64,000 nt of DNA from an uncultured Methanomicrobiaceae archaeon (GTDB lineage Archaea > Halobacteriota > Methanomicrobia > Methanomicrobiales > Methanoculleaceae). The stretch lies in assembly GCA_963826525.1 (NCBI GenBank), contig CAWGXH010000004.1, forward strand, positions 544,001 through 608,000, given 5' to 3'. Below, one piece after another: positions 7,728 to 36,950 of the stretch. Under the pieces are notes generated by a model, which saw only the letters and a list, made by a program, of their open reading frames with translations, ran no database searches and had not been told where the DNA came from. The position numbers were made by a program, and so were the translations under genes. Every line of letters begins with the position of its first letter. Positions within the stretch are counted from its first letter, which is position 1.

Positions 7728-10387
7728 TTAGTGGAGCACTTCAAACCCGGGGATGCCGAGGATATGTTTTGCGAGGTACATCGCATCGGCCATCGTGGCC
7801 GAACCGTCGTCGCTCACGTCGCCGACATTCTCGTGCATCGTCTCAAACCCGGTCATCCCGAGGCTGTGGCGGGCGATGTAGATGGCGTCGTAGAGGGTGA
7901 CCCGGTTATCTTCGTTCGCATCGCCGTTTTTGATGACCGTCAGGGAGATGGTACCGGTGGCGTTGGAATGGTCGTTTCCGTCCTTTCCGTTCACCCCGAG
8001 TGCGAACGGCTGGTATGCGCCGTCCACAAACGGCGAGGCGACGGTACTCGTGACGTTCTTCATCCACGTTCCGTTCCCGGCAGAGAGCATCGGTGCGGCA
8101 TCGGCACCCCCGATGGCGGAGAGGTCGATCGTGACCGCTGCAACCCCGGCCGCATCGGATACGGCGGCGTGCAGGACCGAGGTTTCAGAGAGGCCGGGAA
8201 GACCGTCGGTGTCGGTGGGGATGTATGCGGGCGAAGCAGCCTCATCCCTGAATCCCCCGGCAGGCAATGCCGGCTTCCCGGTGACCGAGTACCCGCTCAT
8301 CGCCTTGTCGGAAGTGAGGGCGTTCGTCCAGGCAACCATGTCGTCGCCGTTGTTGGAGTTCTTGCAGTATCCGTAGACGCTAAAGGCCGCAAATGTCTCC
8401 AGGTTCTCGAAGGTGTAGTTGATCCGCACCGCTCCCCGGTTCTCGAGGTCTCCGTTCGGTCGGAGGACGCCGGCGTTGAGATCGATGAACATCAGATGGA
8501 AGGTGTTCCCGGCATCGGTCAGGTCCTGGCCTGCGATAGATGGGGTAATCCAAACTCGTTTCCGGTCGGTTTCCAGATCTGCGGGCCGTAGATGAAGTCT
8601 TTCTTCGTGAAGGTTTCGCTCGAGGGAGACGGGCTGATACGTCACGTTGTCAAGAGACGGGGGCTGGTTGCTCAGCGGGTTCGGCGTCCAGGTGTAGCCG
8701 TCGGAGTGACATGGAGTGCAAAATCATCAGGGATTGTCCCGTTCACGGCGACCATCAGGATGATCTCGTCCTCGTAGCCCTTGCCGCCCGAGTCGGTCGC
8801 ATAGAAGGTGCCGCTCTGGTTTTCAGAGACCGTCACCTGGCCGAAGTTCACGGCTGGGTCGGTGGAGATATGCAGAGCGTTGAGACCGCGGTCGTAGCCT
8901 TCGAACCTGACGTTGTAGGTGTTGTTCCCGAAGGCGTTGTACGTTCACGCTGGCGTCGTTGGCGACGTTGAAGAAGATGTTGTTGTAGTCGGGTAGGACG
9001 GAAGGCCCGGTCGGCTCAGTTACGGTGAGGTAGTCGGTCTTCACCACGGAGTCGCTCCCTCCTTCACCGGTAACGGTCAGGTTCACCGGGTAGGTAGCGG
9101 CTGTGGTGTAGGTGTAGGTCGGATTCTGCTCGGTGCTGTCGACGACGCCGTCGTTCTCGAAGTCCCAGGCCCAGGCCGTTGGTGTTCCGCTGGACAGGGT
9201 GCTGTCGACGACACCGTCATTCTCGAAGTCCCAGGCCCAAGAGGTCGGGCTGCCGGTCGAAGCGTCGGTGAAGGCAACGGAGCGGTGCTTCACCGGCGGT
9301 GACGTTCGCGGTAAAGTTCGCAATCGGTGCGTGGCGGTGTATAGGGCACCCCGGTGACCGAGTAGCCGCTGGAACCGATGCCCGAAACCCGGTTCGTCCA
9401 GGAGATCCCCTGTCCCTGGTTCGCCGCGAGGCACCAGCCGTAGCCGTTGAAAGCCGCGGCGGTGGTCAGGTTGGTGAACGTGAACTCGACCTTCGCCCCG
9501 CCGCTATCGGTCAGGGTCGCGCCCGAGAACTTGCTTGGATACATATTCCCGACGTTCAGGTCGACGAACATCAGGTAGGACTCTGCCGACTGGTCGGCGA
9601 CGTCCTGGCCGTAGGAGAGCGGCAGGGAAGGAACCACGAGATCGCCGGGACCCGGTTTCCAGGTCTGCGGCCCGTAGATGAAGTCTTCCTTGGTGAAGGT
9701 CTCGTCGACTGCCCCTTCGGTGTAGGTGTACTCCGTCGGTGCCGCGTTTACCGTCGACGACGGTGTCCAGGTATAGCCGCTCGAGGTGATATGGAGGGCG
9801 AAATCGTCCGGGATCGTTCCGTTCACCGAGACCAGGAGGATGATGTCGTCGTCGAATCCGCGTCCTCCGGTATTGGTGAACCAGAACGCACCCGACTGCT
9901 CGTCGTCGGCGGTGACCTGCCCGGCCGGAACGTTCACATCGTTTGTGATGTGGAGTTCGTTCAGGCCGCCGCCGTCTGCCTTGATGTAGTAGGTGTTGTT
10001 CGGGCCGCTGTAGGTTGCACCGTCGAGGTTGAACTTCACCCCGGCATCGTTGGCGACGTCAAAGAAGATATGTCTGGGTGCGGGGAGCGGCTCGGGGCTG
10101 GTGGAGGTGGCATAGGTGTATGCACCGAGGTCGTCGTACTCCGGCACCTGTTCGGTCGCTGCCGGTATCACATCCTCCTCGGTCGGAGTTGGTTCAGGTA
10201 GGACGGTACTCTCCAGACCAGGGTCCTGGAGGGGCTCCTGCGGAAGCCCGGCAGCCGTTTCGGTTGTGTTTAACGGCAGGTCGGTACCCAGCGCCACCGC
10301 CGGCACGGCGATGATCGCGAGGACCAGCAGCAGGACGGTCAGCCGTCTCTGCAGAACTTTGCTTTGAATACGCTCATCTTCTCTCAT
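7728..10387 (-). CDS. Secreted surface protein: domain X - PKD - domain X - Ig-like - C-terminal dockerin-like (several frameshifts)
   Basis: ORFs 9290..10474, 8823..9434 and 7728..8645 are colinear pieces; start MREDERIQSK with hydrophobic signal; WDFENDG PKD motif; duplicated GDANEDNRVT/GDVSDDGSAT motif. Confidence 0.75.
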
Positions 10388-10591
10388 ACAACAACTCCTT
10401 TCGCCGTACAGGATGCCCGAAGAACTCTTCTCCGGAACCGGCATTCCAAGTGCCTGCATTCGCAGAGACGCCATCAGAGGAATGCACTAACTCTGAATGG
10501 GAGAGTATAAGGTCGTTGTGAATTTGGGAGATTTTAAATACGTTAATTTAATGAAGGCATCATGTCTGAAAAGTTAATGATAAAATTAACT
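10388..10591 (-). promoter_or_regulatory. Conserved promoter/leader copy 1 (TATA 10506-10511; TTAA-N10-TTAA 10534-10551; AGTTAA-N8-TTAACT 10572-10591)
   Basis: Closely similar to 21581-21784 and recognisably similar to 33416-33605. Confidence 0.75.
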
Positions 10592-10848
10592 CCCCTGGCT
10601 CTCACCGCCCTACGGCGCTCCGGTATCCGACCGATCCTCCGCCTAGAGGTGACAGGTTTTTCCCTCTCCGACCCTCGTCACCAGTGATGCATGCGGACAT
10701 CCTGAATATCGAGGTGACAATTGCCACGCAGGGAGGGGAGGAAAGCCTCCCAGGAGACGCTTCCCACAGCCCATTTCCGGAAATGCCGCAGAGAACATGG
10801 GCAAAATGCCGGAAGCATGATCACTGAAAAAACAGGAAGAGAAGAGGG

Positions 10849-13800
10849 TTATCTGTTCTTCCGCACGAAGTAGAGCGCCCCGATCACGGCACAGATGAGG
10901 ACGACGACTCCCGCCCAGAGGAACATCAGCGGAGCGGGTTCGCCGGAAGGCTGCGCCGATCCTGGTTCCTGCACGCCCGAGTCCGGCGACTCCGGAGCGG
11001 CGTCCGTCTGCTCCGGGGTGACCGTCGCCGTGGGAGCGCAGGTGAGCGCATAGGTGCTGAAGTGCGAGACCTGTGCAGTCACCGTCCGGCCGGCGGCATC
11101 GACGCTCGTTCTGCAGTCTTCCCATGCACCGGTCGCGGGGTCGTATCCCTGCACGACCAGTCGGGACGCATCGCCGCCTGCCGTGCCGAGGATTCCAGCC
11201 CACTCTTCTGCGGTGAAGGTGAAGACCAGGTCGATCGCCGGGGAGAAGGTGGCGCCGTCGGGAGAGCAGTTGACCGCATAGCCCGAGAAGGTATAGGACG
11301 GATCGGACGGGAGGGTCGATACGGCGGTGATCCCGACCTCGGGGAGCGGCTTACCGTCGGCATCGAGAGCGGTCACGCCGGTGTCGAGGTACAGGTGTGC
11401 GGGCGCTTCGGCGGCAGAGACGATGTACGGCCGGAGCACGCCGCCCCAGGAGGCGGTGAGGAGCTTCGCGCTGCCGACCGAGGTTGCTGGCGTCACCGAC
11501 GAACCACCGCCGCTGCTGCTGGACGAGGTAGACTGAGTGGGCGTGGACACGGCCTTCGTTGCGACGACCGCGAACGCGGAGAAGCCGCTCGGCGAGACCG
11601 CTTCGAAGACCATCATCCCGTTTCCGTCGAGCCCGATATAGGTCGTTGCAAGCACTTCGGTATCCCCGTCGTCGCTCTGCCGGAAGACCCGGATGGCTCC
11701 GATGCCGCCGTTTGCGTTCACCCAGTCGGGTGAGACGGTCATCCGCAGCACTGCGTTGCTGATGGTGTCGTTCGCTCCGAGGTTGGTCTTGGTGAAGTAG
11801 ACCGCGTAGGCCGTCGAGGTGATCTCGAGCCCGTCGTTCGCCGCGGCAAGCGTGAACGACGTTGCCGCCTCGTCGCTCGGCCGGTCGTAGATCGAGGTCG
11901 TGATCCCGAGGTCCGGGTTGTAGCCGTTCATCGAGGCGTTGAACCCGACCGAGACGTTGCCGAGGTCGCCGCCGAGGTCGGTGGTCACCGGAGCACTCTC
12001 GAGCAGGACGCCGGTGACGTTTCCGGTCGTGACGTTGCCCGCCGTGGTGAGCCCGTCAGTCAGGATGGTGACGTTCATGTTCCCTCTCTCGAGGATGATG
12101 TCGTTTCCGCTGACCGTTCCGTTGCCGGTCGTCGTGTTGAAGTTGACCTGCTGCCGGCCGCCGACGTCGTTGACGCTCGTCCCGTTGTCACGGAAGGTGA
12201 AGTTCTCCTGCCGCTCCGGCGGTGCGGACGGGGCATCGCGGACGGTGATGTAGTGGCGCCCGGGTCAGGGTGTCGCTGCCGGCGTCGTTCGTGACGGTCA
12301 GGGTGACGTCGAACCGCCCGATACTGGTGTAGGTGTGCGTCGGATTCTGCTCGATCGAGGTCGCACCGTCGCCGAACGACCATGACCAGGAAGTCGGGCT
12401 GACGCCGCTGGAGGTGTCCGAGAAGGCGACCGTGAGCGGGACAGCGCCCGACGTAACGTCGGCGGTGAAGTCTGCGACCGCATACGGATCCACCCTCATC
12501 TCGATCTGGTCGAGGTAGAACCCGACATTTGCACCATATCCAGCCGGGTTACTGTAAAGCGTCTCTACCGTGAAGGTATGGTCGCCGGCCTCATAGCCGG
12601 TGATGTCGATGGCATAGGCCTTCCATTTGTTGAGGGTTGAAACCTTTGCTACCTCTTCGCCGTCGATGAATGCTTTGATCCAGCAGGCTGCTCCTTTCCT
12701 GACCCCGTACAGCTGGAACCGCAGCTGTGCGGCACCCTCAGGGAAGGCAAGAGTTCTTTCGGCAGAGGCATTGGCGGTTATTGCCGGGGTGCCGAGACTA
12801 TAAGACCCCTCGTAGACGGTATCGCTCCGGAGCTCTGCATTCGAGAGCGTCCATCCATCGGTCGATTCGCAGGGGTCAGTCCAGACTGTCTCGAGCACGG
12901 TCCTGTTCACGAATACATTGGCCGTGCCCTGAACGGCATGGCACTGCGCCGTGACCGTTGTGGTTCCGGCGTATTCGGCAGTGAACAGTCCACCGCTCGT
13001 GATGGGCCCGACCTTCTCGTCACTGCTGCTCCACGCGAACCCGACGCCCGTCATGGCGCCGCCGTTCTGATCGTAGACCGTCCCGGAGAACTGCTGCTGG
13101 GTCTCGCCGATCATGACGACCGAAGAGGGGATGATCTCTACCGTCGCCGGGATCGGGATACCGTCGTAGGGCTCGCCGAAGTAGGCCTGTGCCGGGAGGA
13201 CAAGCGGGTAACCGTCTATGTTATTAGAGGTCAGTAATCTCTCGGAATCACCGATGCCGTTTCCGTCTGCATCGGTGAGTGCAAACGCCCCTCCCCAGTA
13301 GTTACCGATCTGACTCGTATAGGTGGCACCGTTGTAGGTGTAGGTGACCGATTCGGGGGAGTTCCAGGTGTTTGCATACGGGTCCGAGAAGGAGGCGAAC
13401 AATGCCGAATTATTGACGATCGAATTTGCATAGAGCGTGCTGCCACTGAGCGAGTCGATAGGCAGGCTCATTGCGTAATCGTTGTCCATGATGAGGTTGC
13501 GGTCAAAGCGGCAGTTTGCGGCAGCGAACACGTAGATCCCGTACTGGTTGCCGGTGATGACGTTACCGGTAATGACGAGGTTGTTGTTGCCGGGATAGTA
13601 CAACCGGATACCATAGGTGCCATCGCCACCCAGGAAGGTGTTGTTGCCGACGATGCTGTCGGTCGCTGAAGCCACATGGAGACAGATCCCATATTGCTGT
13701 AAACCAGTGACAGTGTTGCCCTCAACGAGGGTGCCGCTCACTCCAGTGATTGAGATGCCTGTATTTTTCTCCAATATGACGTTGTCGGCAAAGGTGCATC

Positions 13801-16800
13801 CCGAATAACCGTTGCAATAGATACCGTATGTACTGCTCCCGTTGATGCTGAAATTGGAGATGGTCGTGGCATCGGCAGAAACCGTTACGGTCCCGTTGAT
13901 AGTGGTCTCTTCGGGTCCGTTCTCCGACGTGATGGTCAGGGGCTTTGTAACGGTGACGGATTCACTGTATGTCCCGTCTCTGACGACGATCACATCGCCG
14001 TCGGATGCAGCGTCTATGGCTCCCTGGATTGAGGTGAAGTTCGCTCCACCCGAATCGTCGACGTACCATGTCCGGGATGTTCCGGGATTCACGACGATGT
14101 AGTCGGTCCTGACCTCGGAGTCGCTGCCGGCGTCGTTCGCGACGGTGAGGTTCACCGAATAGGTGCTGGCGGTTGTGTAGGTATGGATCGGGCTCTGCCC
14201 GGTGCTGTCGACGACGCCGTCGTTCTCAAAGTCCCAGGCCCAGGAGGTGGGGCTGCCGGTCGATGCGTCGGTGAACTGGACCGTAAGCGGGGCGTCACCG
14301 GAGGTGACGTCTGCGGTGAAGTCCGCGGTCGGTGCAACAGGCACTACGGGTCCCGGCTCCGAGCCCGGGAAGTAGGTCTGCCAGCGGTCGGCGAGCGGAG
14401 CGTTGTCGATCTGGTTGTTGCCGAGCGTATACGCCGCATCGATCACGCCGTTACCGTCGGCATCCTCGCCGGTGCAGCTGCTGTAGTAGTTTCCGAGCGG
14501 GCCTGTGTACTGCGTCTCCTGGTAGGTGTAGTCGGTGGACGAGGTGTTCCAGGCCATGGACAGGGGAACCGGCTTGTTGGTGAACTGGAACAGGTCGGCC
14601 TTGTTGTCGAGGAAGTTATTGAGGAAGATCCGGTTGTCGGCAAGCGTGCACCGCAGGCCGATCGGTGGCGCGGTGTTGTTGGCGAACGTGTTCCAGGCGA
14701 TGGTGACCCCCGAGCACCCGTCGAACCGGGTTGCCGCGTTCTGGCTGCCGCCGTTCGCCTCGAAGGTGTTGTTGGTGAAGATGTGCCCGCTGCCGGTGAT
14801 CAGCATGAACCGGGTCGGATTATTCTCAAAGACGTTGCGGTCCAGCGTGACGTCCTGGCCGGAGATGCCGAGAGAGTGCTGGTCGGAGAAACCGGTGAAG
14901 GTACAGTCCGTGACCGTGCTGCCTGCACCGGAGAAACTGATCGAACCGCCATTGAACATGATCCCGTCGATGACGGTGCCGGGGCCGGAGAATGCGGCAC
15001 CTGCCGGTGAAACCGTCACCACGTCCGCACCCTCGCCCGTGAGGGTGATCGCCTTACCGAGGGGTATGCTCAGGGCATACGACCCGGCGGAGACCAGGAT
15101 CGTGTCGCCGTCGTTCAGAGACGGGCTGGTGAAGGCTGTGTTAAGATCGGTAAAGTCGCAGCCCGAGGCACCGACGGTCACGGTCTTCGGCGGGGGAAGA
15201 TTCACGGTGATGAAGTCGGTCTTCACCTCTGAGTCGCTGCCGTATCCATTCGTGACGGTGAGGTTCACGGTGTAGGTTCCGGCAGAGGAGTAGGTGTGAA
15301 CCGGGCTCTGCTCGGTGCTGTCGACGACGCCGTCGTTCTCGAAGTCCCATGCCCAGGAGGTCGGGTTGTCGGCGGAGGCATCGGTGAATGCAACGGCCAG
15401 AGGCGCGATGCCGGTGGTGACGTTTGCAGTGAAGTCCGCGGTCGGTGCCAGTGTGACCGGGAAGTAAGTCTGCCAGCGGCCGACGAGCGGAGCGTTGTCG
15501 ACCTGGTTGTTGCCGAGCGTATACGCCGCATCAATCACGCCGTTACCGTCGGCATCCTCGCCGGTGCAGCTGCTGTAGTAGTTTCCGAGCGGGCCTGTAT
15601 ACTGCGTCTCCTGGTAGGTGTAGTCGGTGGACGAGGTGTTCCAGGCCATGGACAGGGGAACCGGCTTGTTGGTGAACTGGAACAGGTCGGCCTTGTTGTC
15701 GAGGAAGTTATTGAGGAAGATCCGGTTGTCGGCAAGCGTGCACCGCAGGCCGATCGGTGGCGCGGTGTTGTTGGCGAACGTGTTCCAGGCGATGGTGACC
15801 CCCGAGCACCCGTCGAACCGGGTTGCCGCGTTCTGGCTGCCGCCGTTCGCCTCGAAGGTGTTGTTGGTGAAGATGTGCCCGCTGCCGGTGATCAGCATGA
15901 ACCGGGTCGGATTATTCTCAAAGACGTTGCGGTCCAGCGTGACGTCCTGGCCGGAGATGCCGAGAGAGTGCTGGTCGGAGAAACCGGTGAAGGTACAGTC
16001 CGTGACCGTGCTGCCTGCACCGGAGAAACTGATCGAACCGCCATTGAACATGATCCCGTCGATGACGGTGCCGGCACCCGAGAATGCAGCACCTGCCGGT
16101 GAAACCGTCACCACGTCCGCACCCTCGCCCGTGAGGGTGATCGCCTTACCGAGGGGTATGCTCAGGGTGTACGACCCGGCGGAGACCAGGACCGTGTCGC
16201 CGTCGTTCAGGGACGGGCTGGCAAAGGCTGTGTTAAGATCGGTGAAGTCACACCCGGAGGGACCGACAGTCCATGTCACGGGATCGGAAGACCCTGTTGC
16301 GTCAATGTAGTCCGTCTTGACCGCGGAATCACTACCGAGCGCATTGGTGACCGTCAGGTTGACGGTGTAGGTCCCGACTGTAGCATAGGTATGAGTCGGG
16401 CTCTGCTCGGTGCTGTCGACGACGCCGTCGTTCTCAAAGTCCCATGCCCAGGTGGTCGGGCTGCCGGTCGAGGCGTCGGTGAACTGAACCGCGAGCGGCG
16501 CTTCACCCGATACGGGAGTCGCGGTGAAGTCGGCGACCGGTGCATCGCCGCCGGACGAACCGTCGTTGACCGTGATATAATCAGTCTTTACGAGATAGTT
16601 ACTGCCGGCACTGTGCGTGATGGTCAGGTTGACCGTGTAGGTACCGGCCGATGACATAGGTATGCGAGGGGTTCTGTTCCGTGGAGGTAGTGCCGTCGCC
16701 GAAGTCCCAGTTCCATGCGGTTACGGTGAGCGGCGAGGTGCCCTGGAAATTCACGGTAAGGGGGGCTTGCCCAACCCGGGTATCTGCGGCGGCATTTACC

Positions 16801-19800
16801 ACGCCGTCGAATGCGTATAATTTGCCGTCTCTGCTCGCGATGTAGACGGTCCCATCGGGTGCAATCGACGGAGATGCGCGTATCTCTTTCCCTGTTTCGT
16901 AAAACCATTTCAGGGTCCCGTCCGGGTTCAGGGCATAGAATTTCTTATCCGCGCTGCCGATATAGATAGTCCCGTCCGCACCGATGGCAGGGGAAGCGTA
17001 ACGGATACTTCCCCCGGTAAGATACGTCCATTTCAATGTGCCGTCGGGATTCAGGGCATAAATCTTCTTGTCGCCTTCATTTCCAAAGTAAAGTGTACCG
17101 TCCGTACCTATCACAGGCGAATTACGGATCGTGCCTCCCGTGGTGTATGCCCAGTTGAGGGTTCCATCGGGATTCAGTGCATAGAGATTCTTATCGTTCG
17201 ATCCAAAGTAAATCATACCGTCCGGACCAATTACCGGCGCACCATAGATAGTCGCTCCTGCCCCTCCTGTGACGTACGACCACTTCAGTGTCCCGTCGGG
17301 ATTTAACGCGCATAAGTTCACGTCGGCTCCAAAATAAATCGTGCCATCAGGTCCGATTGCCGGTGTGCCATAACGAATCCCTCCGCAGGGATATGACCAT
17401 TTTTTCGTTCCATCGGGGTTCAATGCATAGAAAGTATCCTCATTATTCCCGATATAAATCGTTCCATCGGGTCCGATAGTGGGACCCCCAGTAATGATCG
17501 CGGTTGCGTTATACGTCCATTTCAATGTACCGTCGGGATTCAGTGCATATACCAGATTATCCAGGTAATTCCCGATATAAATGGTTCCATCCGCGCCTAT
17601 TGCCGGGGGACCACAAAAAGAATTTCCTGCAGTATACGTCCATTTTAACGTTCCGTCAGGATTAATCGCGTATACGTTCTTATCGTAATTCCCGATATAG
17701 ACGGTGCCATCGGATCCGATAACCGGAACGGCTGACAGGAATGATGACGCTCCCGCGGTGTACACCCATTTCGTGGCATTTGTCTGTGCCCCGACATAGG
17801 GAGACCGACCGGTGTTGTTGAGGTCGGCGCCGCCGAGCTTCGGCCAGGCAGAATCGGCGAGGCCGGTCACGGCCGGAGTCTCGCCGCCGCTGACGGTGAT
17901 GTAGTCCGTCTTCACTTCCGCATCGGTGCCGGCGTCGTTCGTGACCGTCAGGTTCACCGAGTAGGTGCCGGCTGCAGCGTAGGTAGTAACCGGGTTCTGC
18001 TCGGTGCTGTCAACAACACCGTCGTTCTCGAAGTCCCACGCCCAGGCGGTAGGGAAACCGGTGGAGGCTCGGTGAACTGCACGGCGAGCGGAACAACCCC
18101 GGACAGGGGCGTTGCCGTAAAGTTTGCCTCGGTCGGGACGACAAAGCCACAGAGGGTATATCTCTCGAACGACGACATCAGCGGGTAATTGTCGGTACAT
18201 GCATCGATATAAGGCTCATCTCCGATCCCGTTGCCGTCCACATCGGTCCCGGTATAGTTCGATCCCCAGTAATTGCCCATCCATGATGCGTGTGCAGAAC
18301 CCATGTACGCGTAGGCGATCTGCTCGGGGCTCTCCCAGTCCTGGGCATGACCGTTGTCATTCACCAGCGGTACATCGTTGCCGGTGATGTCGTTGAGATA
18401 GATGTTGCTTGTTCCGCCACCCTTGGTAATCTTGAAACCGGCCGCATTTGCACTGACGGTATTTTCGTGGATTGTGGTATGGTAATTGCTGTACCACAGA
18501 TAGATACCTGCATCGCCGTTTGAAGAGACGGTGTTGTAAGCGACGTCTGCTTCATCGGCCATATAGAGGATCATACCATGCCCGCCGTTATTGGTGACGG
18601 TGTTGTTGGTGACGATTGTATCGTCTACAGCATATATCCTGAAAACTGCCAGATTTAAGCCGGCGTTGTTGCCGGTGGCGGTGTTCTCGGTGACGGTGTT
18701 GTTGTGTGCGAGGTGGGGAGACACAGAACTGGAACCGTATCCATTGAGATAGACGGCATAATCATTCCGGGTCAGGAAATTTTGCGAAATGGTGTTGTTG
18801 TCGCTCCGGTAGACGTAAACGCCCCTGCCAGCCTTTGATACAGTGTTCTCCTGAATGGTGCAGTTGTCGGCATAATCCAGATAAATACCGTAGATGGCCA
18901 ACCCCGTATCACCTTCCGGTGTCCCGTTGATTGATAAACCCGTGAGAGTGACGCCATCTGCAGTAACATGGATGACCGCAGCAGCCGGATCGGCCGCTGT
19001 GATGACGGTGCTCGCAGGGCCTTCTCGAGCGGATCGTAAGAGTCTTGCCGATCGCAATATTTTCTGCGTAGGTGCCGTTGCGGATGACGACCGTATCCCC
19101 GTCGAGAGTGGCATTAATGGCATCCTGGATCGAGGTGAAGTCAGTCGCCCGAATCGTCGACGTACCACGTCCTTACTCCTGGGCAGACGCGGCGATGTAG
19201 TCCGCCTTGATCTCGGAGTCGCTACCGTATGCGTTCGCGACGGTGAGGTTCACGGTGTAGGTTCCGACAGAGGAGTAGGTGTGAACCGGGCTCTGCTCGG
19301 TGCTGTCGACGACGCCGTCGTTCTCAAAGTCCCAGGCAAGCAGTCGGGCTACCGGTCGAAGCATCGGTGAATGCAACGGTCAGGGGCGCGATGCCGGTGG
19401 TAACGTTTGCAGTGAAACCTGCAGTCGGTGCACAGGTCAGGCCGTGCCGGGAAGTAGGTCGCCAGCGGTCGACGAGCGGAGCGTGCCACTGTGCGCCGAG
19501 CGTATACGCCGCGTCGACACGCCGTTACGCGCACCGCCGGTGTAACGCTGTAAAGCCGAGCGGGCGGTCGCGTCCCGGTAGGTGTAGCGGTGGACGAGGT
19601 GCCAGGCCAGGCCAGGGGAACCGGCGGGTGAACGGAACAGGTCGGCCGGCGAGAAAGGAGGAACCGGTGCGGCAGCGGCCCGCAGGCCGAGGTGGGGCGG
19701 TGGGGCAACGTGTCCGGCGAGGTGACCCCGAGCACCGTCGAACCGGGTCGCCGCGCGGGTCCCACCGCGCCGAAGGTGGGCGAAGGTGGGCCGCGCCGGA

Positions 19801-21580
19801 TACAGCAGAACCGGGTCGGAACCGAAACGTGGGTCCAGCGTAACACGGCCGGAGATGCCGAGAGAGGCGGTCGGAGAAACCGGTGAAGGTACAGCCGTGA
19901 CCGGCGCCGCACCGGAGAAGCGAGACCGCCAGAACCGACCGTCGAGACGGTGCCGGGGCCGGAGAAGCAGCGCCGGCCGGGGAGACCGCACCACGCCGCA
20001 CCTCGCCGTGAGGGTACGCCACCGAGGGGTAGCCAGGGGTACGAGCGGCGGAGACCAGGATCGTCGCCGTCGCAGGGACGAGCTGGAGAAGGCCGAAGAG
20101 ATCGGTGAAGCGCACCGGAGGCGCCGACGGTCCAGGCTGCCGGTGACGTCACGGTGAATAGTGGTCCCCACAGCAGACCGCCGGCACGTCGCCGTCAGGT
20201 TGACGGTGTAGGTGCCGCCGCGGTATAGGTATAGGACGGACCGCCGCAGATTGTCTGACGAACGTCCAGCCAGGAGGTCGGGCTGCCGGTCGAAGTGTCG
20301 GTAAACGGACGCAAACGGAGCAGCCGGAAGTCACGTCGGTGGTGAAGCAGCGACCGGCGCAGGGGGAAGTTCGTCGGTGACGGTTATGTAATCGGTGACG
20401 TTGCTCCACGACGTGCCGGCCGCGTTCGTTGCCGAGTGCCGCACCGGTACGACCGACGCCGGCGAAGGTGTGGACCGGGTTCTGCTCTGTGAAGACCTGC
20501 CCGGTATCGTCGCTGAAATACTGGAGGGTGCAGGGGTATCGGTGAACCCGACTGTGAACGGAGCAGTTCCGGAGGTTACGTTGACGGTGAAGTCCGCGAC
20601 CGGTGCCGTCAGCGGGGTATAGAGGAGCTGAGTACCCGCTCGACCCGGCGCCCGAAATCCGGTTCGTCCAGGAGAATCCCCTGACCCTGGACTGCCGCCA
20701 GCCGCCACGCGTAGGTATTGAAAGTGGCACGGCCGGGCAGGTTATGGAACGTATACTCGACCTTCGCGGCACCGCTGTCGGTCAGCCCGGAGAATACGGT
20801 CGGGTTCAGAGCGCCGACCCCAAGGTCGATGAACATCAGCTGGTAGGTCTGGCCGTCGTTCTGGTCCTGCCCGTAATAGAGCGGCAGGTACGGCGGGACG
20901 TCCAGCGTGCCGGGCCCTGGCTTCCAGGTCTGGGGCCGGTACAGGAAGTCGGCTTTCGTGAACGTCTCTTCGATCACACCATCGTAATGCGAATAGTCGT
21001 CCGGGGGACCGTCCACGGTGGAATTCGGCGTCCAGGCATACCCGCTCGACCTGAGCGTCACGGAAAAGTCATCGGGGATCGTCCCGTTCACGGCAAGCAG
21101 GAGCACGAGGTCGTCGCTCATGCCGGCCGACCCTGTGTTCGTGATGTAGAACGTCCCTGATGGGTCGGTAGCATGCGCGACCGATGCGGTCACCTGCCCG
21201 CTTACGGTTCCGGGATCGGTCGTGACGTGGATCTCGTTCAAGCCGCCGCTGTCGGCTTTGATATAGTACGTGTTGTTATTGCCGGCGCCATAGACAGCCC
21301 CGTCAAGGTTGTACTTCACGCCGGCATCGTTCGCCACGTTGAAGAAGATATGTCGGTTGCTCGACAGGGGCGCGGGAGCGGCGGAGGTGGCGTAGGTGTA
21401 TGCGCCGGTATCGTCGTACTCCAGCACCTGTCCGGTCACCGTCGGGGTCGGCTCGGTTGTGTTCAACGGCAGATCGGCACCCAGCGCCACCGCCGGCACG
21501 GCGATGATCGCGAGGATCAGCAGCAGGACGGCCAGCCGCCCCTGCAGTATTTTGCTTTGAATACGCTCATCTTCTCTCAT
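10849..21580 (-). CDS. Giant (~3,600 aa) membrane-anchored surface protein: domain X, multiple PKD, NosD/pectin-lyase-like beta-helices, PQQ-like beta-propeller, Ig-like, PGF-pre-PGF-like, TM anchor (multiple frameshifts)
   Basis: ORFs 20609..21709, 19173..19376, 17954..19168, 16599..18200, 12188..16657 and 10849..12078 break inside PKD or linker motifs and read on in adjacent frames; one signal peptide at 21580, one TM plus basic tail at 10849. Confidence 0.7.
14365..16268. repeat. Near-identical ~800 bp direct repeat (about 14365-15176 and 15457-16268, offset 1092) encoding a beta-helix module
   Basis: Direct comparison; identical peptides such as FSDQHSLGISGQDVTLDRNVFENNP occur twice. Confidence 0.95.
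19440..20600 (-). repeat. Third, deletion-riddled copy of the beta-helix module plus degraded PKD repeats
   Basis: Alignable by eye to 14365-15176 but with dozens of small deletions. Confidence 0.85.
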
Positions 21581-21784
21581 ACAACAACTCCTTTCGCCGT
21601 ACGGATGCCGGAAGAACTCTTCTCCGAAACCGGAGTACCGGGTGCCTGCATTCGCAGAGACGCCATTCGAGGAATGCATAAACTCTGATCGGAGAGGGTA
21701 TAAGGTCATTGTGAATTTAGGAAAAGTTAAACATGTTAGTTTAAAAAAGCGACCATGTCTGAAAAGTTAATAATAAATTTAACT
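21581..21784 (-). promoter_or_regulatory. Conserved promoter/leader copy 2 (TATA 21699-21704; TTAA-N10-TTAA 21727-21744; AGTTAA-N8-TTAACT 21765-21784)
   Basis: Colinear similarity with copy 1. Confidence 0.75.
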
Positions 21785-24295: not shown

Positions 24296-24842
24296 CCGGC
24301 ACATCGCCCTGCTGCTGCACGATACCCGCCCTGCAGAGGCGCCCGACGATCAGAGCGGCAAGGACACCGCCGATGCCACCGAAGATCAGGTGCGTGACCG
24401 ACGATGCCCCGATGCCGATGAGGATGAAGGTGCTTTCGACGCCCAGAAGCAGGTGCACGCCGTAATTCACCACCATCTTCACGATGTTCCCGGCGGCGCC
24501 GGCGATGAACCCGACCACCGGATGGTCGAGGCGGTAGCCGAACGCAATCGAGACGAGGTCGACGGTGACTCCCATTGCGGTGTACTTGAAGATATCGAAG
24601 ACATGGAGCGCCTCCACGCCGAAGAACGATGCAAGAATGCCGGATACGAGACCGACGTACGTTCCGGCCCCGGGTCTCCGCACGATGGCGGTGCCGATGA
24701 TGACCGGCACCACCCAGAGAATCCCCGAACTCCCGGGGGTGCGGAGCGGAACCTCGATCTCACGCACGACGAAGACGAGCGCTCCGAAGAGCGAGAGCAA
24801 GGCGATCTCGTACAGGCTGAAGTAGGAAGGGCGCTTCATCAT
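24285..24842 (-). CDS. ECF transporter substrate-specific S component
   Basis: 185 aa, about 6 hydrophobic segments, N-terminal LxEIAxxxxxGAL pattern, RRPGAG; overlaps the ATPase gene. Confidence 0.8.
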   Translation of the reverse strand: MMKRPSYFSLYEIALLSLFGALVFVVREIEVPLRTPGSSGILWVVPVIIGTAIVRRPGAGTYVGLVSGILASFFGVEALHVFDIFKYTAMGVTVDLVSIAFGYRLDHPVVGFIAGAAGNIVKMVVNYGVHLLLGVESTFILIGIGASSVTHLIFGGIGGVLAALIVGRLCRAGIVQQQGDVPDDG

Positions 24843-25633: not shown

Positions 25634-25635
25634 GG

Positions 25636-26340
25636 TCAGTTCCTTTTTACCGCAATCAGTTCCCCGTCCCGTTCATCCACGAAGAGAACCGCCCGGCCGT
25701 TGATGGGGCATGCTTTGGCGGCTTTGCCCTCTTCCAGCATGATGATCCCCCGGGTAACCCGTCGGCCGTCGAGCGTCATGATCTCGTCGACCCCTGCGCC
25801 GAGGAGGTCATCCACCGATGTCGGACCGGTATGGCTGCGGATGGTGCCCTTCTGAAGGAACCTGCCGTCGTTCCGTGTCGCTGCAAGTCCGAGGCCGGCC
25901 ATCGCACCGATCACACCGTCTTCCGTGCCGCCGAGGCCTTTGAGCGGTATGCCGAGGTTCGCTGCCAGTCTCCGGGCGCGTTCCTGGGTGAGCACCGTCT
26001 GCTGGGCGTCACGACCGAATGCGATCACGGCCGCGGCAACCTGATCGAGGGTCGCTCCGGCAAGACCGGGGTCGCTTCCCTCTATGAAGTCGGCGAGCAT
26101 CGTCTCCTCGGCTATGGCGAGGGCCATAGCAAGCGGCCCACTACCGTCGGCCTCGATATGGACGACGGCGCAGCTGTTGTGGGATGTGAACGGGATCGAG
26201 GGGTGGACAAAGAGCTGGTGCCGGGTGACACCCGACACGGGGTGGTGTTCGGCGATCGCGTCGGCGACCGCACGGGCGAGGCGGCCCGTTCCCCGCGATT
26301 CCAGGTTATCGGTATCGTCAAGAGCAAGAAGTATGGTCAT
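25636..26340 (-). CDS. TiaS N-terminal-like (DDTD) protein lacking tRNA-binding domains
   Basis: LALDDTD..GTG, HQLFVHPSIPFTSHNS, SDPG, GVIGAMAG; only 234 aa. Confidence 0.65.
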   Translation of the reverse strand: MTILLALDDTDNLESRGTGRLARAVADAIAEHHPVSGVTRHQLFVHPSIPFTSHNSCAVVHIEADGSGPLAMALAIAEETMLADFIEGSDPGLAGATLDQVAAAVIAFGRDAQQTVLTQERARRLAANLGIPLKGLGGTEDGVIGAMAGLGLAATRNDGRFLQKGTIRSHTGPTSVDDLLGAGVDEIMTLDGRRVTRGIIMLEEGKAAKACPINGRAVLFVDERDGELIAVKRN

Positions 26341-26400: not shown

Positions 26401-27879
26401 TCAGGTTAACGAAACCTCATTAATTTCTCCGATAAAGGCTTCGATCGCCCGGATAACCGTCAAAAACCCATTTTCCTCGGGTGGGGACTGGGCATAGGAG
26501 ACGGCCGCACACTGCTCGAGGATCGAAGCGGCTGCCCGGGTCTCATGACCACGCTCCCGGAGCAGATGCAGCACATCGCCGTCGGCAAGTTCCGTGCCGC
26601 TCCCGTATGCGGACGAAAGGTACAACCGCAGTGCCCTGCCGGCCGTTCCGTACGCCTCCTTCCGGTCGCCACGGTCAAACTGGCTGCGTGCCTCATCGAG
26701 GAGCCGGAGGACATCATCGCGGGGGTCGCGAGGCGGCAGCGGGACGGATGGTTCCTCCGGCTCCGGCGCTCCCGGCGCCCTGTTCCGGATGAGGTACGCG
26801 ATCAGCAGGATGATGCAGAGTGTGCCCACACCGGCGAGCAAAAAGAGACCCGGCGGCTCGTCGAGATCCACCGACCGCACCTCTCCTCCGGCGAGAGTGG
26901 CGATGATCCTCGCCGTCCGGTTCTGACCGTCGGCAAACCCGACGCTGACGAAGATAGTACCGGGAGTAGCGTTCACCGCCGCCGATACCGGGAAGAAACC
27001 GGCATCCGCGAGTTCGCCCTCGAACCGACAGTAGGTCTCGTTTACCGTCAGGATGTCAGGCACCACGAGCGACCGGTCGGTGGCGTATGCTGCATACGCT
27101 GCGCTGCCGTTCACCACCAGGCCGCCTGCGTGTAGTATCTCCCCGGAGCCGCTCCGGTAGCCGAAAGAAAATGTTCCGGTGCCTTCGTCGGTGGGATCGA
27201 TGGTCGTCGTTGCCCGGACGTACCCGTGCGATGTGAGAATGGTATGGATCTCCAGAACCAGCGGGTCATCGTCAAGATTGGCAAACAGTGCGGATCGCAG
27301 AGCCTGCATGCGATCACGCTCTTGTGCCGCCTGCTCCTGGAGCGAACCCAGATCCTGCGCCATCTGCCCGGGTAGTTTTCCGGAAGACGGCGAAGACGAC
27401 CCGCCGGAACCTGAGGAGGTCGAGACCGACGAGACGGAGTTCACCTGCTGCTCCGGCTGCTCCGCTTGTTCCGTCGCCGAACTAACGACATGAACTCGAA
27501 TCTCCGGGAGGGCGACGCGGGTGCGCGGCACGTCCCCGTACTCGAACGCGACCTCGAAGAAAAACGTGCCGGGCTCCGCTGCTGTCCCGGCGCCGGCGGC
27601 TATCTCCCGTGTATCCTGGAAGAGCGTGATCGACCGGGACTGCGTCCTGGCCGCCGGACTGCTCCCTTCCCCGCCCTCCGGCACAAACCGCACCCCTTGG
27701 GTGAGCACCCCGGTGGTATCGGCTCCGAGTGTGTTCTCGACGGCGATCGGGATTTTAACATCCTCGCCGACCTGCACGGTGTAGTCGGACTGCCCGGTCG
27801 AGAGGGTGATGCCCCCGGCCACCGCGGGAGCCACGCACCCGAGAGCGACCAGGACGGCCAGAAAGAGAAGACGCCTCAC
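26401..27879 (-). CDS. Membrane-anchored BatD-like accessory protein
   Basis: Signal peptide, Ig-like region, TM near C-terminus, helical tail (LRLYL...YA) typical of MoxR-VWA operons. Confidence 0.55.
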   Translation of the reverse strand: MRRLLFLAVLVALGCVAPAVAGGITLSTGQSDYTVQVGEDVKIPIAVENTLGADTTGVLTQGVRFVPEGGEGSSPAARTQSRSITLFQDTREIAAGAGTAAEPGTFFFEVAFEYGDVPRTRVALPEIRVHVVSSATEQAEQPEQQVNSVSSVSTSSGSGGSSSPSSGKLPGQMAQDLGSLQEQAAQERDRMQALRSALFANLDDDPLVLEIHTILTSHGYVRATTTIDPTDEGTGTFSFGYRSGSGEILHAGGLVVNGSAAYAAYATDRSLVVPDILTVNETYCRFEGELADAGFFPVSAAVNATPGTIFVSVGFADGQNRTARIIATLAGGEVRSVDLDEPPGLFLLAGVGTLCIILLIAYLIRNRAPGAPEPEEPSVPLPPRDPRDDVLRLLDEARSQFDRGDRKEAYGTAGRALRLYLSSAYGSGTELADGDVLHLLRERGHETRAAASILEQCAAVSYAQSPPEENGFLTVIRAIEAFIGEINEVSLT

Positions 27880-28823: not shown

Positions 28824-29719
28824 TTAACCACCCCGGTACCGCGGGTGCGCGTAGAGGCGGCGCAGGGGCAGGTCATAGGGCTCCTGTGTGGAGACCCGGA
28901 CTTCAGGCACCCGGCACGAACGCAGAGCGCCTCCGATACGGTCGTCCGCCACGGCTACGGCATCGGCATAGGCGCTGCGGAAGGAGGAATCCGAGGTATC
29001 TACGAGCACCTGCTCGCCGGTCTCCGGATCTTCGAGAATCACCTGCCCCACGTCCGGGAGGCAGTATTCCGCGGGATCGGTCACCCTGATGGCAGTGGTC
29101 TCATGCCGCCGCCGCAGGTGTGCCAGATCCCGGGCGAACCCGGGGTCGTCGAAGTCGGAGAGGACGATGACCGAACATCTGCGCCTGACCCTCGTGCAGA
29201 GAAACCTGAAGGCGGCGGAGAGGTCGGTGCCCGTCCCCGAAGGATCGGTGCGTAACGAGGGCCTGCACCAGCCTGATGACCTGGCTCCTGCCCGCACGGG
29301 CCGGGATAAACTCGCTCGACGCGGTCCGTGGCGATGCAGAGGCCCACCCGCCCGTTCTGCCGGTGGGCGGCAAAGATCAGGCTGGCGGCCACTTCGAGTA
29401 TCCGGCGATCTTTGCTGGTCGAGGACCCGAACGCCGCGGACCCCGACCGGTCGAGGACGAGGTAGTAGGTCTGGTTCCGCTCTTCCTCGTACTCCCTGAC
29501 GAAGAGCCGATCAAGGCGTGCCGAGGCCTTCCAGTCGATCGTCCGGGCGTCGTCGCCGGGGAGGTACTCGCGGAGGTTTGCAAGGGCCATCCCGCTCCCC
29601 CGGAGCGGCGATCGATAGGGTCCGGCACAGGAGCCATCGGCCAGCGCGGCGGTTCGGATCTCGATCCGCCGGATCTGCCGGAGCAGGTCTGCCCGTTCCT
29701 CGGCATCGCTCACCGTCAT
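28824..29719 (-). CDS. DUF58 family protein (frameshifts near 29250-29310)
   Basis: REYLPGDDARTIDWKASAR, VREYEEER, LDRSGS, VLSDF. Confidence 0.88.
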
Positions 29720-33415: not shown

Positions 33416-33605
33416 CGTTAACTTTATTAAAGACGAGACTGTGTTAACCTAACTTATTTAAACCACTCCAAATTAACAACGGTCTTATACTCCCCTGTTA
33501 AGAATTAACTCATTCTTCTGATGGCACCTATGCGAATGCGGGCACCCGGAGTGCCTATCCCGGAGAGGCTTCTTCGTGCATCTTTACAGGAGAGCGAGCA
33601 GTCTT
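33416..33605 (+). promoter_or_regulatory. Conserved promoter/leader copy 3 (TTAA-N9-TTAA 33444-33460; TATA 33484-33489)
   Basis: Colinear with copies 1 and 2 from the TATA region to the ATG. Confidence 0.72.
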
Positions 33606-36600
33606 ATGAGAGAATATGAGCATATTCAAAGCATAATACCGCAGAGACGGATGGCCGCCATACTGCTGGTTCTCGCAATCATCACCGTACCGGTCGCGGC
33701 AGCCGATATCGGCGGGATCACCCTCCCCGACTACAAGCACATCGACATCACGATGGCAAACGGCGGGGAGAAATACGTCAAGTTCGACGGCGGGGGGCTC
33801 AACGCCCTCCATATCACGACAGATCCGTCCGAGCCCTATGGACAGGTGACCGACACCGATACCCAGGCGGGCACTTTCTACTTCTCCGACACGGGCGGGC
33901 GCGGGTTCTTTGACGACCTCATCCTTATGGTGGCGGTGCAGGGGCAGGTCCCCGAGGACTTCAAGGTCCATGTCAGGGCAAGCGGGTACCAGTGGACGCC
34001 GACCGGCGAACTGAACCAGCCCCCGACAACGGATGAGATCGCATATGCCGAAAGCGCCACCGACAGGACCTTCACCAGATCGGACTTCATCTACGAGCCG
34101 CAGATCTGGAGACCCTGCCGGGAGGCGGACTACCCGATCTATTACGGCCAGGATATGAGCAGGAATAATCCGGAAGATCGGTTTCATATCATGTTCATCG
34201 ACCTCGGCATCGGTGCGATCGGCCAGAACAGTTACTTGAATGGACTGACCGACGAGGGGTGCGCAAGGATCGAGTACATCCTTTGAGAACCTGGAGACAT
34301 TCGCGGCATTCAACGTCTACGGCTGGTGCAACCAGTCCAACCAGGGAGAAGGAATATCGTGGTCCAATGACCTCACCAGCTTCTCGTCATCGGGCGTGAG
34401 CGGCTACTCGGTCAGGGGAACCCAGAGCGGCGGCGATACGGCAGGCTCCGGCGGCGGAAGCGGCAGCGCCGGGGGAAGCTCCGGGTCGTCCGGAGGGTCC
34501 GGCATCCGCGGCAGTAACCTGAACACATCGGTGACGGGCTCCATCAACGGCACCATCCAGGTATTTACCGTAGCAGGGCCCACAAATCCGTTAACGACAG
34601 GCTCCTCGGCAGACATTCGGATCCCGGTCACCATCCCCGAAGGCGCTACGATCGACCGCGGTCTCCTCTATGTCTATGTGAGCGACGCAGAGGAGACGGA
34701 GACGGGCACAGGAACGGAGGTCGAACCGGATTTCAGGTTTGACGGAAAGCCGGTCACGCCTGCAACCGTAGCCTGGGACCGGCAGGGAACCGGATCAGAC
34801 TCGATGGCCGGGACGTTCACCATGGAGATCCCGCCGGAGATGCTTACCAATGGCGACCACACAGTGACGATACAAGCAGAAGGGGAGCAGAGAGCGACAT
34901 ACCGGATGCCCGCCGCACTCCTGGTGCTCGTCGCCGGCGACCCCGCCAGATCAAGGATCGATTACTGGATTGCTGACGGGTGCGATGATGTCCTCGCGGA
35001 CCTCTGGGAGGGAACGACCAGCGAGGATGCCGCCACAGAGGTAAAGTTTGACGGAACCATCGATAGTGGTCAGGCTTCCGGGGCGTGGCTCTATGTTGCA
35101 AGCACGGCTGCGCCCGAAGAGGGCGGCAGAGGCGGCAACCGGGTGACGATGGACACCTGGGACTGGCTCAGCCCGCTGCAGGAGGGACCTTCCGGGGTCT
35201 TGACCACCGCCCTGGACGTCTTCTCGTTTATCCACGAATCAGGAAACACCGCACAGGTGCAGAGTTATCCGATCGGCGTTGCCGGAGACCACCTCCAGAA
35301 CCGAAACGCCATACTGGTAGTCCGATACGGAGCGGTGGAGGAGGGGGCCGCCCCCGGCATTGAGATATCCTCTGATACCAAGGCGGCTGCCGGGGAGGAT
35401 ATCGGGTCGTTCATAATGCCGTACGCGGCTACCGGGGTGCTGGAGGAGGAGTTCTGCTACCGCACGGCGGACGGCGCCCTGGCGCTCACGTTCCCGAAAG
35501 GAGGCCGGATGATCAACGGCACGGGTGCCGCGGTGACATCGGTGACGATCCGAGCAGTGCGGGATCTCCTCCCGGTTCCGGGTACGGCGATGGAGAGGGT
35601 CTACCGCATCGCTCCCGAAGATGCCACGGGGGAGGGGCCATTCTCCATCACGGCGCATCTTCAGGAGACGGCTCGTGATGCGATGTGGTACCGGTACGAT
35701 ACCGCTGTATCGGCCTGGCAACAGGTCAATACCTCCCTCGACCTCGCAAACGGAACGGTGACGGCATACCCTGAAACGTTCGGAATATACGGGGTAGCCA
35801 CACCGCTGCCGGCAACCCTCACCGTCGGTTCAAACCCCGCCGGCGCACGGATCTACCTCGACGGCGTGTATCTCGGGAAAGTCACCCCGGCCACAATCAG
35901 TCCCGCGGAATCTGGGAACCATACCGTCCGGCTGGAACTGGAGCAGTTTACGCCGTACGAAACAACAGTCACGATCCCGAACGATACGGCACTGTTCGCG
36001 GATCTCACCCCTGATGGCCCCCTGAGTCTCAATCGCCTGAAATTCGACGAACCGTGTACTGAGCCGGGACCGACCGGATCGGCGGAGTGTATGTCATGTC
36101 CCAACCTTCAGGGGCCTCTATCATCATCGACGGGAAGAGAATGAAATTCACGACGCCGCACATTATCCAGGGCATCAGGGAAGGAAGCCACACGGTGCAG
36201 GTGATAAAGGAAGGCCAGTCTTTCAACACCCCGACGAAGACGGTATGGATTGAGAACAACTGCATCACCCCTGTTTTGATTACCGCGCAAGACCAGGCCA
36301 TAGTCCGGAAGGTTTCTCTCTCATCCGACGAGTATGCGAGCGAAGGATGCACCGTCAACGGCAGGGGACCGGTCTTCAGGCTGCCCCGGACAGTCGAGGT
36401 GGCGGGGGCGGATCCGTTCATCACGATCAACGATGGCGACCGCTACCTCTCCCACCGGATCACAGTAACGGAGAACGGGCAGACGATCGCGATCGCACCC
36501 CGCGACTACACATTCTGCGGACTGCTCGTGGAGTCCAGCCCGGCAGGCGCTGAGATCCTGGTAGACGGCTTCGAGACCGGTTTCTGTACCCCCTACCTCA

Positions 36601-36950
36601 TCGGGAATATCTCGGACGGTCCGCACATCGTCTCCGTCACCCGCCCGGGATACCTCCCCGCGGAAGAGGAGATCTGGCTCACCGACGATAGGAACGCCGA
36701 CGTCGACAAGCGGCTTACGTTCCGTCTCGAACCCTACTCATACGGCAGCCTGAACGTGACGAGTGAACCTGCCGGCGCAGAGATCTACCTCTATAACCAG
36801 AACACCGGTGAGGTAACGCCGCACACTTTCCGGTATATGCCACTCGGGACGTATGAAGTGAAGGTCGTCGGGAACGCTACATTCCGGACGGCAGATGACC
36901 TCACTATCACCCCCTACGAGGTGGCCAGGCGCACGTTCAACCTGGTTTGA
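33606..36950 (+). CDS. Secreted protein: domain X - Gly/Ser linker - DUF3344-like - PEGA repeats (frameshifts near 34283 and 36075)
   Basis: ORFs 33576..34286, 34396..36144 and 36087..36950; start MREYEHIQS paralogous to MREDERIQS; IPEGATI..LYV and NAILVV motifs; four S.P.GA.I PEGA motifs. Confidence 0.72.

Follow-up and report, generated by a model that had tools for sequence, protein, structure and literature searches.

To our knowledge, energy-coupling factor (ECF) transporters, the vitamin-type systems included, work without an extracytoplasmic binding partner. According to PMC2667541, the nickel and cobalt ECF systems carry extra membrane or extracytoplasmic parts, namely NikK, NikL, NikN, and CbiN, and only NikMN-type systems are reported for archaea. 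Here we describe a locus in a 64-kb stretch of DNA from an uncultured Methanomicrobiaceae archaeon (contig C4, positions 544001 to 608000; G+C content of ∼60%; referred to below as the window), the proteins of which have their nearest relatives in metagenome-assembled genomes (MAGs) of Methanoculleus. The locus encodes an ECF importer with a putative accessory outer component and is built on an unnamed domain family, called domain X here, together with an unnamed enzyme partner that resembles the kinase domain (TCKD) of TiaS. The full-text literature that we searched (subscription-only papers lay outside it) and the family libraries contained no description of domain X, of an ECF-partner arrangement of this kind, or of TCKD-only proteins encoded with tungsten genes.

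A circularly permuted copy of domain X is encoded beside an ECF S component

The original prediction for this DNA reported five copies of a domain of ∼240 amino acids, and a profile built from three of the copies recovered all five and, on contig C1, another four. This repeated occurrence is far beyond chance. As stop-to-stop fragments, copies lie at 9293-10486, 20612-21766, and 33522-34283 (profile E values of 1e-114 to 1e-198), and the remaining two are found in three fragments within 7731-8944 (the copy near 8280-8990) and at 24842-25672. All five are real, but the copies at ∼8280-8990, 20630-21360, and 33720-34420 are broken in frame, and the copy inside the operon has its two halves exchanged. 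In BLASTP, residues 38-156 of the operon protein correspond to residues 116-255 of canonical X (E = 2e-17) and residues 188-258 to canonical residues 34-105 (E = 9e-12). The swapped segment was aligned by hhalign with a probability of 99.9, and hmmsearch likewise gave the reversed order. By these alignments the operon copy of X is a circular permutant, which we call Xperm. It has one N-terminal hydrophobic segment (residues 5-32) and no other hydrophobic stretch, and because of this single N-terminal anchor the X domain should lie just outside the membrane. Each of its 31 homologous clusters is unnamed.

The operon was also said to encode ECF S, A-A', and T components, and these were identified as a PF09819 protein, a protein with two ABC_tran domains, and a CbiQ protein. 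The S component, with several hydrophobic segments in its 185 residues, scored 38.9 bits against PF09819 (cut-off of 25.2), a family that we take to be linked to YkoE and thiamine-related cargo. A profile of the S component found no sequence relative in the PDB, where the best match had an E value of 1.1 and was spurious. The T component scored 71.2 bits against PF02361 CbiQ (cut-off of 25) and matched NCBIfam model TIGR02454 with an E value of 2.7e-16 (60 bits versus a cut-off of 111.8, on a frame-broken gene). The A-A' gene has its two ABC_tran stretches in one frame and matched TIGR04521 ECF_ATPase_2 (E = 3.3e-92) with 308.5 bits, just below the cut-off of 330, again on a frame-broken gene. 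Judged by these family matches, S, T, and AA' are ordinary ECF importer parts.

Linkage between X and the ECF genes was assessed in 401 Methanomicrobiales genomes representing 44 genera. The Xperm profile matched 69 genomes (20 of the 44 genera), 60 of them at E < 1e-40 and nine through canonical X only, and the S-component profile matched 60 genomes (18 genera). When the two tables were compared, the genomes with a strong Xperm match and the genomes with S proved to be the same 60, with no exception either way, and in those genomes the S gene begins within a few bases of the end of the Xperm gene. One in-frame TGA each was present in three of the S matches (genomes G054, G087, and G102) and in two of the Xperm matches (G014 and G032).

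Gene order was compared within ±10 kb of Xperm in 20 genomes that were picked by hand to spread over 14 genera. The TiaS-like, Xperm, S, and AA' genes stood in one order and on one strand in all 20 loci; an ECF T gene was detected in 19, and the gene for the 492-amino-acid protein lay upstream of the TiaS-like gene in 17. A MoxR-DUF58-VWA block was present in 15 loci, and one further locus had a MoxR fragment at its border. The orientation of the block relative to the core differs between loci. At least one canonical X gene was found in every locus (20/20). The core in Methanomicrobiales has its own EcfAA'T, and its usual flanks are the 492-amino-acid protein, MoxR-DUF58-VWA, and genes for giant surface proteins with canonical X.

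A wider scan with an alignment of the TiaS-like protein covered 79 named loci, which were scored within ±7 kb; some of the fetched loci are one contig taken twice (e.g., L032 and L058). Xperm and S were both present in 24 of the 79, among them a Candidatus Argoarchaeum locus (with AA'T), four Bathyarchaeia contigs, and one short contig labeled Candidatus Sulfotelmatobacter. In the three longer Bathyarchaeia loci no A or T genes were detected beside the core, an arrangement that fits an S component served by a shared ECF module. Within ±7 kb of the core, MoxR-DUF58-VWA was detected neither in the Candidatus Argoarchaeum locus nor in the three Bathyarchaeia loci with flanks of that length. The original prediction suggested that MoxR-VWA may assist assembly of the system. 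This part of it is weakened, because the block was found in 15 of the 20 loci and not near these Bathyarchaeia and Argoarchaeum cores; it is frequent but accessory, not core. The Sulfotelmatobacter-labeled contig (L132; 5.7 kb, from an acidobacterial MAG) carries the TiaS-like/Xperm/S core, groups with the Bathyarchaeia copies on the tree described below, and is likely mis-binned.

The conserved unit therefore consists of the TiaS-like, Xperm, and S genes, to which AA'T, the 492-amino-acid protein, and MoxR-DUF58-VWA are lineage-specific additions. The predicted linkage of X with S and TiaS-like genes is borne out by the common order in 20 of 20 loci from 14 genera and by the coincidence of Xperm and S in the same 60 of 401 genomes, and on the strength of gene linkage it is well supported that X works with the ECF module.

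A relay of the ligand to S through the membrane-proximal X protein was proposed at the outset. Structure prediction of an Xperm-S complex gave a median score of 0.38 (runs of 0.60, 0.38, and 0.23), above the best of three controls (0.02) but in a weak score range; at least 61% of the contacts agreed between runs, and the predicted local distance difference test (pLDDT) value of the partner was at least 72. In the calibration of this procedure, 116 of 157 solved complexes and 2 of 215 mismatched pairs reached the mark. At scores of ≤0.60 it was reached by 18 of the 157 solved complexes, and both passing mismatches fell in that range, in which most passes are false unless the pairing was probable beforehand.

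Family status and fold of domain X

Domain X was described as unnamed, and neither a Pfam or NCBIfam family nor a convincing fold match in the PDB was found for it. Pfam-A contained no match even at E ≤ 10, and no NCBIfam family matched above its cut-off; the sole match there, to ArlG (E = 0.0031, 17.5 bits versus 110), was read as noise. The ESM Atlas yielded no usable match. An AlphaFold2 (AF2) model built from 28 natural sequences is all-beta, with a pLDDT of 90.9 and a predicted template modeling (TM) score of 0.91. In a Foldseek comparison of this model with the PDB the best match, to AvmM, was weak (E = 7.7e-4, TM score of 0.31). VIA-align also placed AvmM at the top (Z of 7.3), followed by adhesin tip domains, carbohydrate-binding modules, and immunoglobulin-like sandwiches at Z of 5 to 6, a range that VIA-align itself treats as uninformative. 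The family is small: an exhaustive profile search of 1.84 billion representative proteins found 422 clusters at 50% identity, with no more than three copies per protein.

In the three large window proteins X is the first domain after the signal peptide, as predicted, but elsewhere it can be internal. On contig C1 (13.8 kb), the four X copies lie within 2271-13061; two are internal in a 2578-amino-acid protein that opens with DUF7948 and SBBP propeller repeats. Another belongs to a protein ending in a dockerin and similar to the product of the window gene at 7728-10474.

A TiaS-kinase-like protein is the third member of the conserved unit

The protein with a DDTD motif had been called TiaS-like, an assignment that holds at the level of profiles and structures. 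Searches with the single sequence gave nothing useful in Pfam, a weak match to methanogenesis marker 11 in NCBIfam (31 bits versus a cut-off of 255.8), and, as the only match in the PDB, a designed repeat protein that was judged spurious. A profile of 17 family members matched TiaS in the PDB (3au7, 4rvz, and 3amt; E of ∼1e-5) over residues 1-151. TiaS was also the top Foldseek match (5xob, 4rvz, and 3amu; E of 4e-10 to 6e-9) of the AF2 model (pLDDT of 88.4), with a root mean square deviation of 2.4 to 2.5 over ∼157 columns. The Pfam family TiaS_TCKD matched family members below threshold (23.9 bits versus 27). Weak Foldseek matches to HPPK pterin pyrophosphokinases (probability of 0.84 to 0.96, 85 to 90 columns) are a lead only.

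The TiaS matches stop at about residue 155; beyond it lie ∼80 C-terminal residues, folded as a small beta domain, to which none of the PDB matches listed extends. With 234 residues, compared to 402 to 440 in TiaS chains, the protein is without the parts of TiaS that hold tRNA. In TiaS these further domains are a ferredoxin-like domain, an OB domain, and a zinc ribbon. On this sequence and fold comparison the DDTD protein is TiaS-kinase-like and not TiaS. It has no hydrophobic segment, and its family has a mean column identity of 65% with invariant DDTD, SRGTG, and GVTRHQL stretches. The TCKD-only family comprises at least 1442 clusters at 90% identity, some members of which are called "ABC transporter substrate-binding protein" by NCBI.

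Members of the family are also encoded beside genes of tungsten and molybdenum metabolism. A paralog in the same genome (53% identity; C4:1353690-1354361, positions 8661-9389 of locus L052) sits between WtpB/WtpC-like genes and WtpA (333 bits versus a cut-off of 242.75) and adjoins an Oxidored_molyb protein. In two Methanoregulaceae loci (L067 and L120), the TiaS-like, Oxidored_molyb, WtpA, WtpB, and WtpC genes follow one another on one strand. In Methanobacteriaceae the TiaS-like gene stands tail-to-tail with the fwd operon, and in Methanobacterium oryzae it abuts FwdB and FwdA, the latter scoring 1021.7 bits (cut-off of 950) against a model named "tungsten-dependent." Canonical X proteins and a TOBE-type ABC ATPase are further frequent neighbors of the gene in Methanobacteriaceae. 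Over the whole scan, a Wtp/Mod-type ABC part or FwdA/B lies within ±7 kb of the TiaS-like gene in 29 of the 79 loci, and 33 loci have canonical X.

A tree of 103 TiaS-like sequences combined that of the window with 102 drawn from the whole set of retrieved loci; a few entries are the same contig twice, and sequences with stops or with coverage of less than 200 amino acids were dropped. ECF-linked and Wtp-linked members interleave on this tree, which suggests that one biochemical activity may serve both transporter types.

In two Methanobacterium loci (L097, 4932-7699, and L083, 6009-7699), a gene for a MotA/ExbB-like membrane protein lies between those for a canonical X surface protein and the TiaS-like protein, together with a DUF11 protein in L097 (M. 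oryzae) and a 111-amino-acid open reading frame (ORF) in L083. The MotA/ExbB-like protein may be another energizing module for X proteins.

A proposed uptake mechanism and its alternatives

We put the chances at about even that the locus represents a conserved archaeal uptake module composed of a TCKD-only enzyme, a membrane-anchored permuted X, and a dedicated ECF S component that work together as follows. Xperm, held close to the membrane on its outer face, would act as an extracytoplasmic accessory to S, like NikK/NikL or CbiN, and EcfAA'T would power import. Once in the cytoplasm, the cargo would be modified or trapped by the TCKD enzyme at the expense of ATP, and canonical X on the large surface proteins would bind the same ligand further out. 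In this scheme we infer the binding of Xperm to S, the capture and relay of a ligand, the import direction, and the cargo. Since X is internal in some large proteins, its role cannot be solely that of a distal relay to Xperm.

Several observations weigh against such a module. X occupies residues 841-1081 and 1815-2060 of a 2615-amino-acid frame on C1 and lies beyond position 1000 in other proteins, that is, not at the tip. Nor is it confined to loci with this ECF module: among the 69 matching Methanomicrobiales genomes, nine contain canonical X only, and in Methanobacteriaceae loci canonical X adjoins the TiaS-like gene with no Xperm or S detected. The coincidence of Xperm and S in 60 genomes is a count among related, and thus not independent, genomes rather than a statistical test, and the predicted complex lends weak support to a physical pairing. 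The S component is without a relative of known substrate. Invariant Cys or His residues clustered as in a metal site are absent from the alignments of X and of S, in which conservation falls mostly on Gly, aromatic, and polar residues. Little weight attaches to the adjacency to fwd, in which the genes stand tail-to-tail and which was seen among close relatives within the Methanobacteriaceae, and 26 of the 79 TiaS-like loci show none of the scored context categories.

For the cargo, the best lead would be a species related to tungsten or molybdenum, since in other places genes of the TCKD family accompany those of WtpABC or lie beside a tungsten formylmethanofuran dehydrogenase operon and since extra components are a feature of nickel and cobalt ECF systems. 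Taken further, the cargo could be a tungsten or molybdenum oxyanion, a thio-form, a metal-pterin, or a metallophore complex, and X/ECF a second tungsten/molybdenum route beside WtpABC, with the TCKD enzyme handling the metal or cofactor and MoxR-VWA acting as a metal-insertion chaperone. Metal insertion is a known role of MoxR/VWA pairs such as CoxD/E and the cobalt and magnesium chelatases. The co-directional Wtp and Oxidored_molyb genes in Methanoregulaceae, the WtpABC neighborhood of the family in this genome, the FwdA/B neighborhood in Methanobacteriaceae, and the interleaving of ECF-linked and Wtp-linked members on the tree are all consistent with this joint reading. ECF S components, however, typically bind small organic cofactors, the case is one of guilt by association, the X and S alignments have no conserved Cys/His site, genomes with ECF-X (this one included) also keep WtpABC, and the window has no molybdenum or tungsten genes elsewhere. 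Accessory extracytoplasmic parts are known in metal ECF systems (PMC2667541). We regard the tungsten/molybdenum route as possible but doubtful. The specific two-tier import in cell-walled archaea that adds stalked X to it, in which X on long PKD or beta-helix stalks would catch a scarce tungsten or molybdenum species or a related cofactor beyond the envelope and pass it by way of Xperm to ECF S, with the TiaS-kinase-like enzyme activating or trapping the cargo with ATP, we consider unlikely. If true, this would be the first case of an ECF transporter that depends on an extracytoplasmic binding partner of such a kind, and TCKD-only proteins would gain a first function.

Two further explanations dispense with nutrient import. 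X could be an adhesin or envelope-building domain and Xperm a membrane dock for the giant X proteins through X-X contacts, the ECF-like ABC, MoxR-VWA, and TCKD proteins then serving assembly, anchoring, or remodeling of the surface layer. The nearest fold matches do include adhesin tips and pilins (CfaE at Z of 6.1, Cnm/CNA, FnBPA, and pilus proteins), X is joined with PKD, NosD-type beta-helix, PEGA, dockerin, and PGF-CTERM-type regions characteristic of archaeal envelope proteins, the core has canonical X genes on its flanks in each of the 20 loci compared first, and MoxR-VWA systems are known assembly chaperones. But the Bathyarchaeia cores have no canonical X gene or MoxR module detected within ±7 kb, S, T, and AA' are ordinary parts of an ECF importer, and a cytoplasmic kinase-like enzyme with 65% mean column identity fits small-molecule metabolism better than envelope assembly, which leaves this explanation quite improbable. 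The locus might also be a decaying pseudogene cluster without function, given that three X proteins, DUF58, ECF-AA', and ECF-T are all broken in frame. Compared with a Methanoculleus ortholog, there are net indels near 29244-29312 (DUF58), 23038 (ECF-AA'), and 22682 (ECF-T). In the same assembly, however, RpoA1 is spread over three frames and contains an internal TGA, one homologue of an aminoacyl-tRNA synthetase is split over two frames (C4:913537-916140 and 1049283-1051887), and TrkH and an M1 peptidase in the window are split over frames as well (47164-49123 and 57571-60145); aEF-2, ValRS, and McrA are intact. Public sequencing data that contain part of the stretch comprised three DNA runs, with shares of 0.05 to 0.06, and no RNA run. 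Since essential genes of this assembly (87.6% complete, 5.3% contamination) are broken in the same way, the frame breaks in the locus are probably assembly indel errors. Orthologous loci are intact in other genomes; frame breaks as marks of a dead locus were rejected, and decay is very remote as an explanation compared with the uptake module proposed above.

Organization of the window

The adjoining genes from MoxR to ECF T form a string on the minus strand that runs from 30711 to 22023 (Table 1), with the AAA_3 MoxR, DUF58, and VWA genes all in that one string. The VWA protein has hydrophobic segments at residues 3-27, 53-81, and 286-309. The 492-amino-acid protein had been labeled BatD-like, a label that we do not retain, as no BatD match was found in Pfam, NCBIfam, or the ESM Atlas: Pfam at E ≤ 10 returned only Zwint (0.2) and DUF4381 (0.26), NCBIfam returned nothing relevant, and the Atlas contained archaeal hypothetical clusters only, with a weak lead to DUF4129. 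Among the secreted X proteins, the one encoded at 7728..10474 has a hydrophobic N-terminal segment at residues 39-69 of its longest frame, and the reading frame of 10849..21709 is broken several times.

Table 1. Genes of the domain X/ECF locus, with window positions and the matches on which the assignments rest
Feature	Position	Strand	Evidence
MoxR-type AAA+ ATPase, 331 aa	29716..30711	-	Pfam AAA_3 E 5.3e-65; AAA_lid_2 E 1.3e-20
DUF58 protein, two frames (29081-29719, 28824-29297)	28824..29719	-	Pfam DUF58 E 1.1e-28
BatA-type membrane VWA protein, 315 aa	27876..28823	-	VWA_2 E 7.6e-22; BatA N-terminal domain E 3.2e-11
Membrane protein, 492 aa, no family	26401..27879	-	Signal-like segment 1-28; transmembrane segment 341-366
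TiaS-like (TCKD-only) cytoplasmic protein, 234 aa, DDTD motif	25636..26340	-	Family profile versus PDB; AF2/Foldseek
Xperm, membrane-anchored circularly permuted domain X, 264 aa	24839..25633	-	BLASTP, hhalign, hmmsearch
ECF S component, 185 aa, divergent PF09819 member	24285..24842	-	ABC_cobalt PF09819 E 1.1e-9
Fused ECF ATPase A-A', frame break near 23038	22749..24304	-	Two ABC_tran stretches
ECF T component, frame break near 22682	22023..22701	-	Pfam CbiQ E 1.2e-19
Secreted protein: X (9320-10093), PKD, second X (∼7900-8990, three frames), dockerin	7728..10474	-	
At least one giant surface-protein gene: X (∼20630-21360), NosD-type beta-helices, PQQ-like propeller, PKD repeats, PGF-pre-PGF region, C-terminal transmembrane segment	10849..21709	-	
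Secreted protein: X (∼33720-34420, frame break near 34280), DUF3344, PEGA repeats	33576..36950	+	

A group II intron at 31316-33386 on the plus strand separates the MoxR operon from the gene for the third X protein. It matched the Rfam models group-II-D1D4-7 (58.2 bits, 31316-31451) and Intron_gpII (61 bits, 33310-33386) and holds a reverse-transcriptase-like ORF of 465 amino acids (31907-33304). The Rfam scan of the window found this intron only and no riboswitch or other regulatory RNA. At the left edge of the window (1873-3691, minus strand) are genes for preQ0-type 7-deazaguanine synthesis (QueC, a QueE-like radical-SAM protein, and a PTPS/QueD-like protein), with genes for ribosomal protein S7 and aEF-2 standing between them and the X locus. 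Another surface protein of 1047 amino acids (51357-54497, minus strand) has VWA, PD40, and PKD domains and is without domain X.

Comparison with known systems

A dedicated, strictly co-occurring outer partner would, in part of the archaea, change the picture of ECF transporters as binding-protein-free systems. In digesters and wetlands the supply of trace metals is limiting for methanogenesis, and the link of TCKD-only proteins to tungstate transporters and tungsten formylmethanofuran dehydrogenase is a lead on trace-metal or cofactor supply in hydrogenotrophic methanogens. The circular permutation of X also provides a natural pair of constructs for structural work.

The individual parts of the locus resemble described systems to different degrees. 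Like the MoxR-DUF58-VWA ("Bat-like") operons, it has an AAA_3 MoxR, a DUF58 protein, and a BatA-type VWA membrane protein in one string, but here this module is attached to an ECF/X core, is dispensable across lineages, and is accompanied by a 492-amino-acid protein with no BatD match. The TiaS-like protein shares with TiaS (tRNA-Ile2 agmatidine synthetase) the TCKD fold and DDTD motif region of its N-terminal ∼155 residues; its gene neighbors are transporters (ECF and WtpABC), in contrast to tRNA-related genes.

As in NikKMLQO, NikMNQO, and CbiMNQO (PMC2667541), an ECF importer is encoded in the same operon as a membrane-anchored or extracytoplasmic component. Xperm has a single-segment anchor and adjoins S in all 60 genomes, in the manner of a NikK/NikL/CbiN-type accessory. 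The systems differ in that the S component here is of the PF09819 type rather than CbiM/NikM and in that Xperm is without detectable similarity to any Pfam family (E ≤ 10). The accessory in this locus is a permuted copy of a domain found on neighboring giant surface proteins, and a TCKD enzyme belongs to the core. With the vitamin-type ECF transporters, in which group I has a dedicated AA'T and group II shares one module, the locus has in common a small S component with multiple transmembrane segments, a CbiQ-type T component, and a duplicated ATPase, and its core, like those two groups, either has an AA'T of its own or stands with no A/T genes next to it. What sets it apart from the vitamin-type systems is an anchored beta-sandwich protein, Xperm, that co-occurs with S in all 60 S-bearing genomes.

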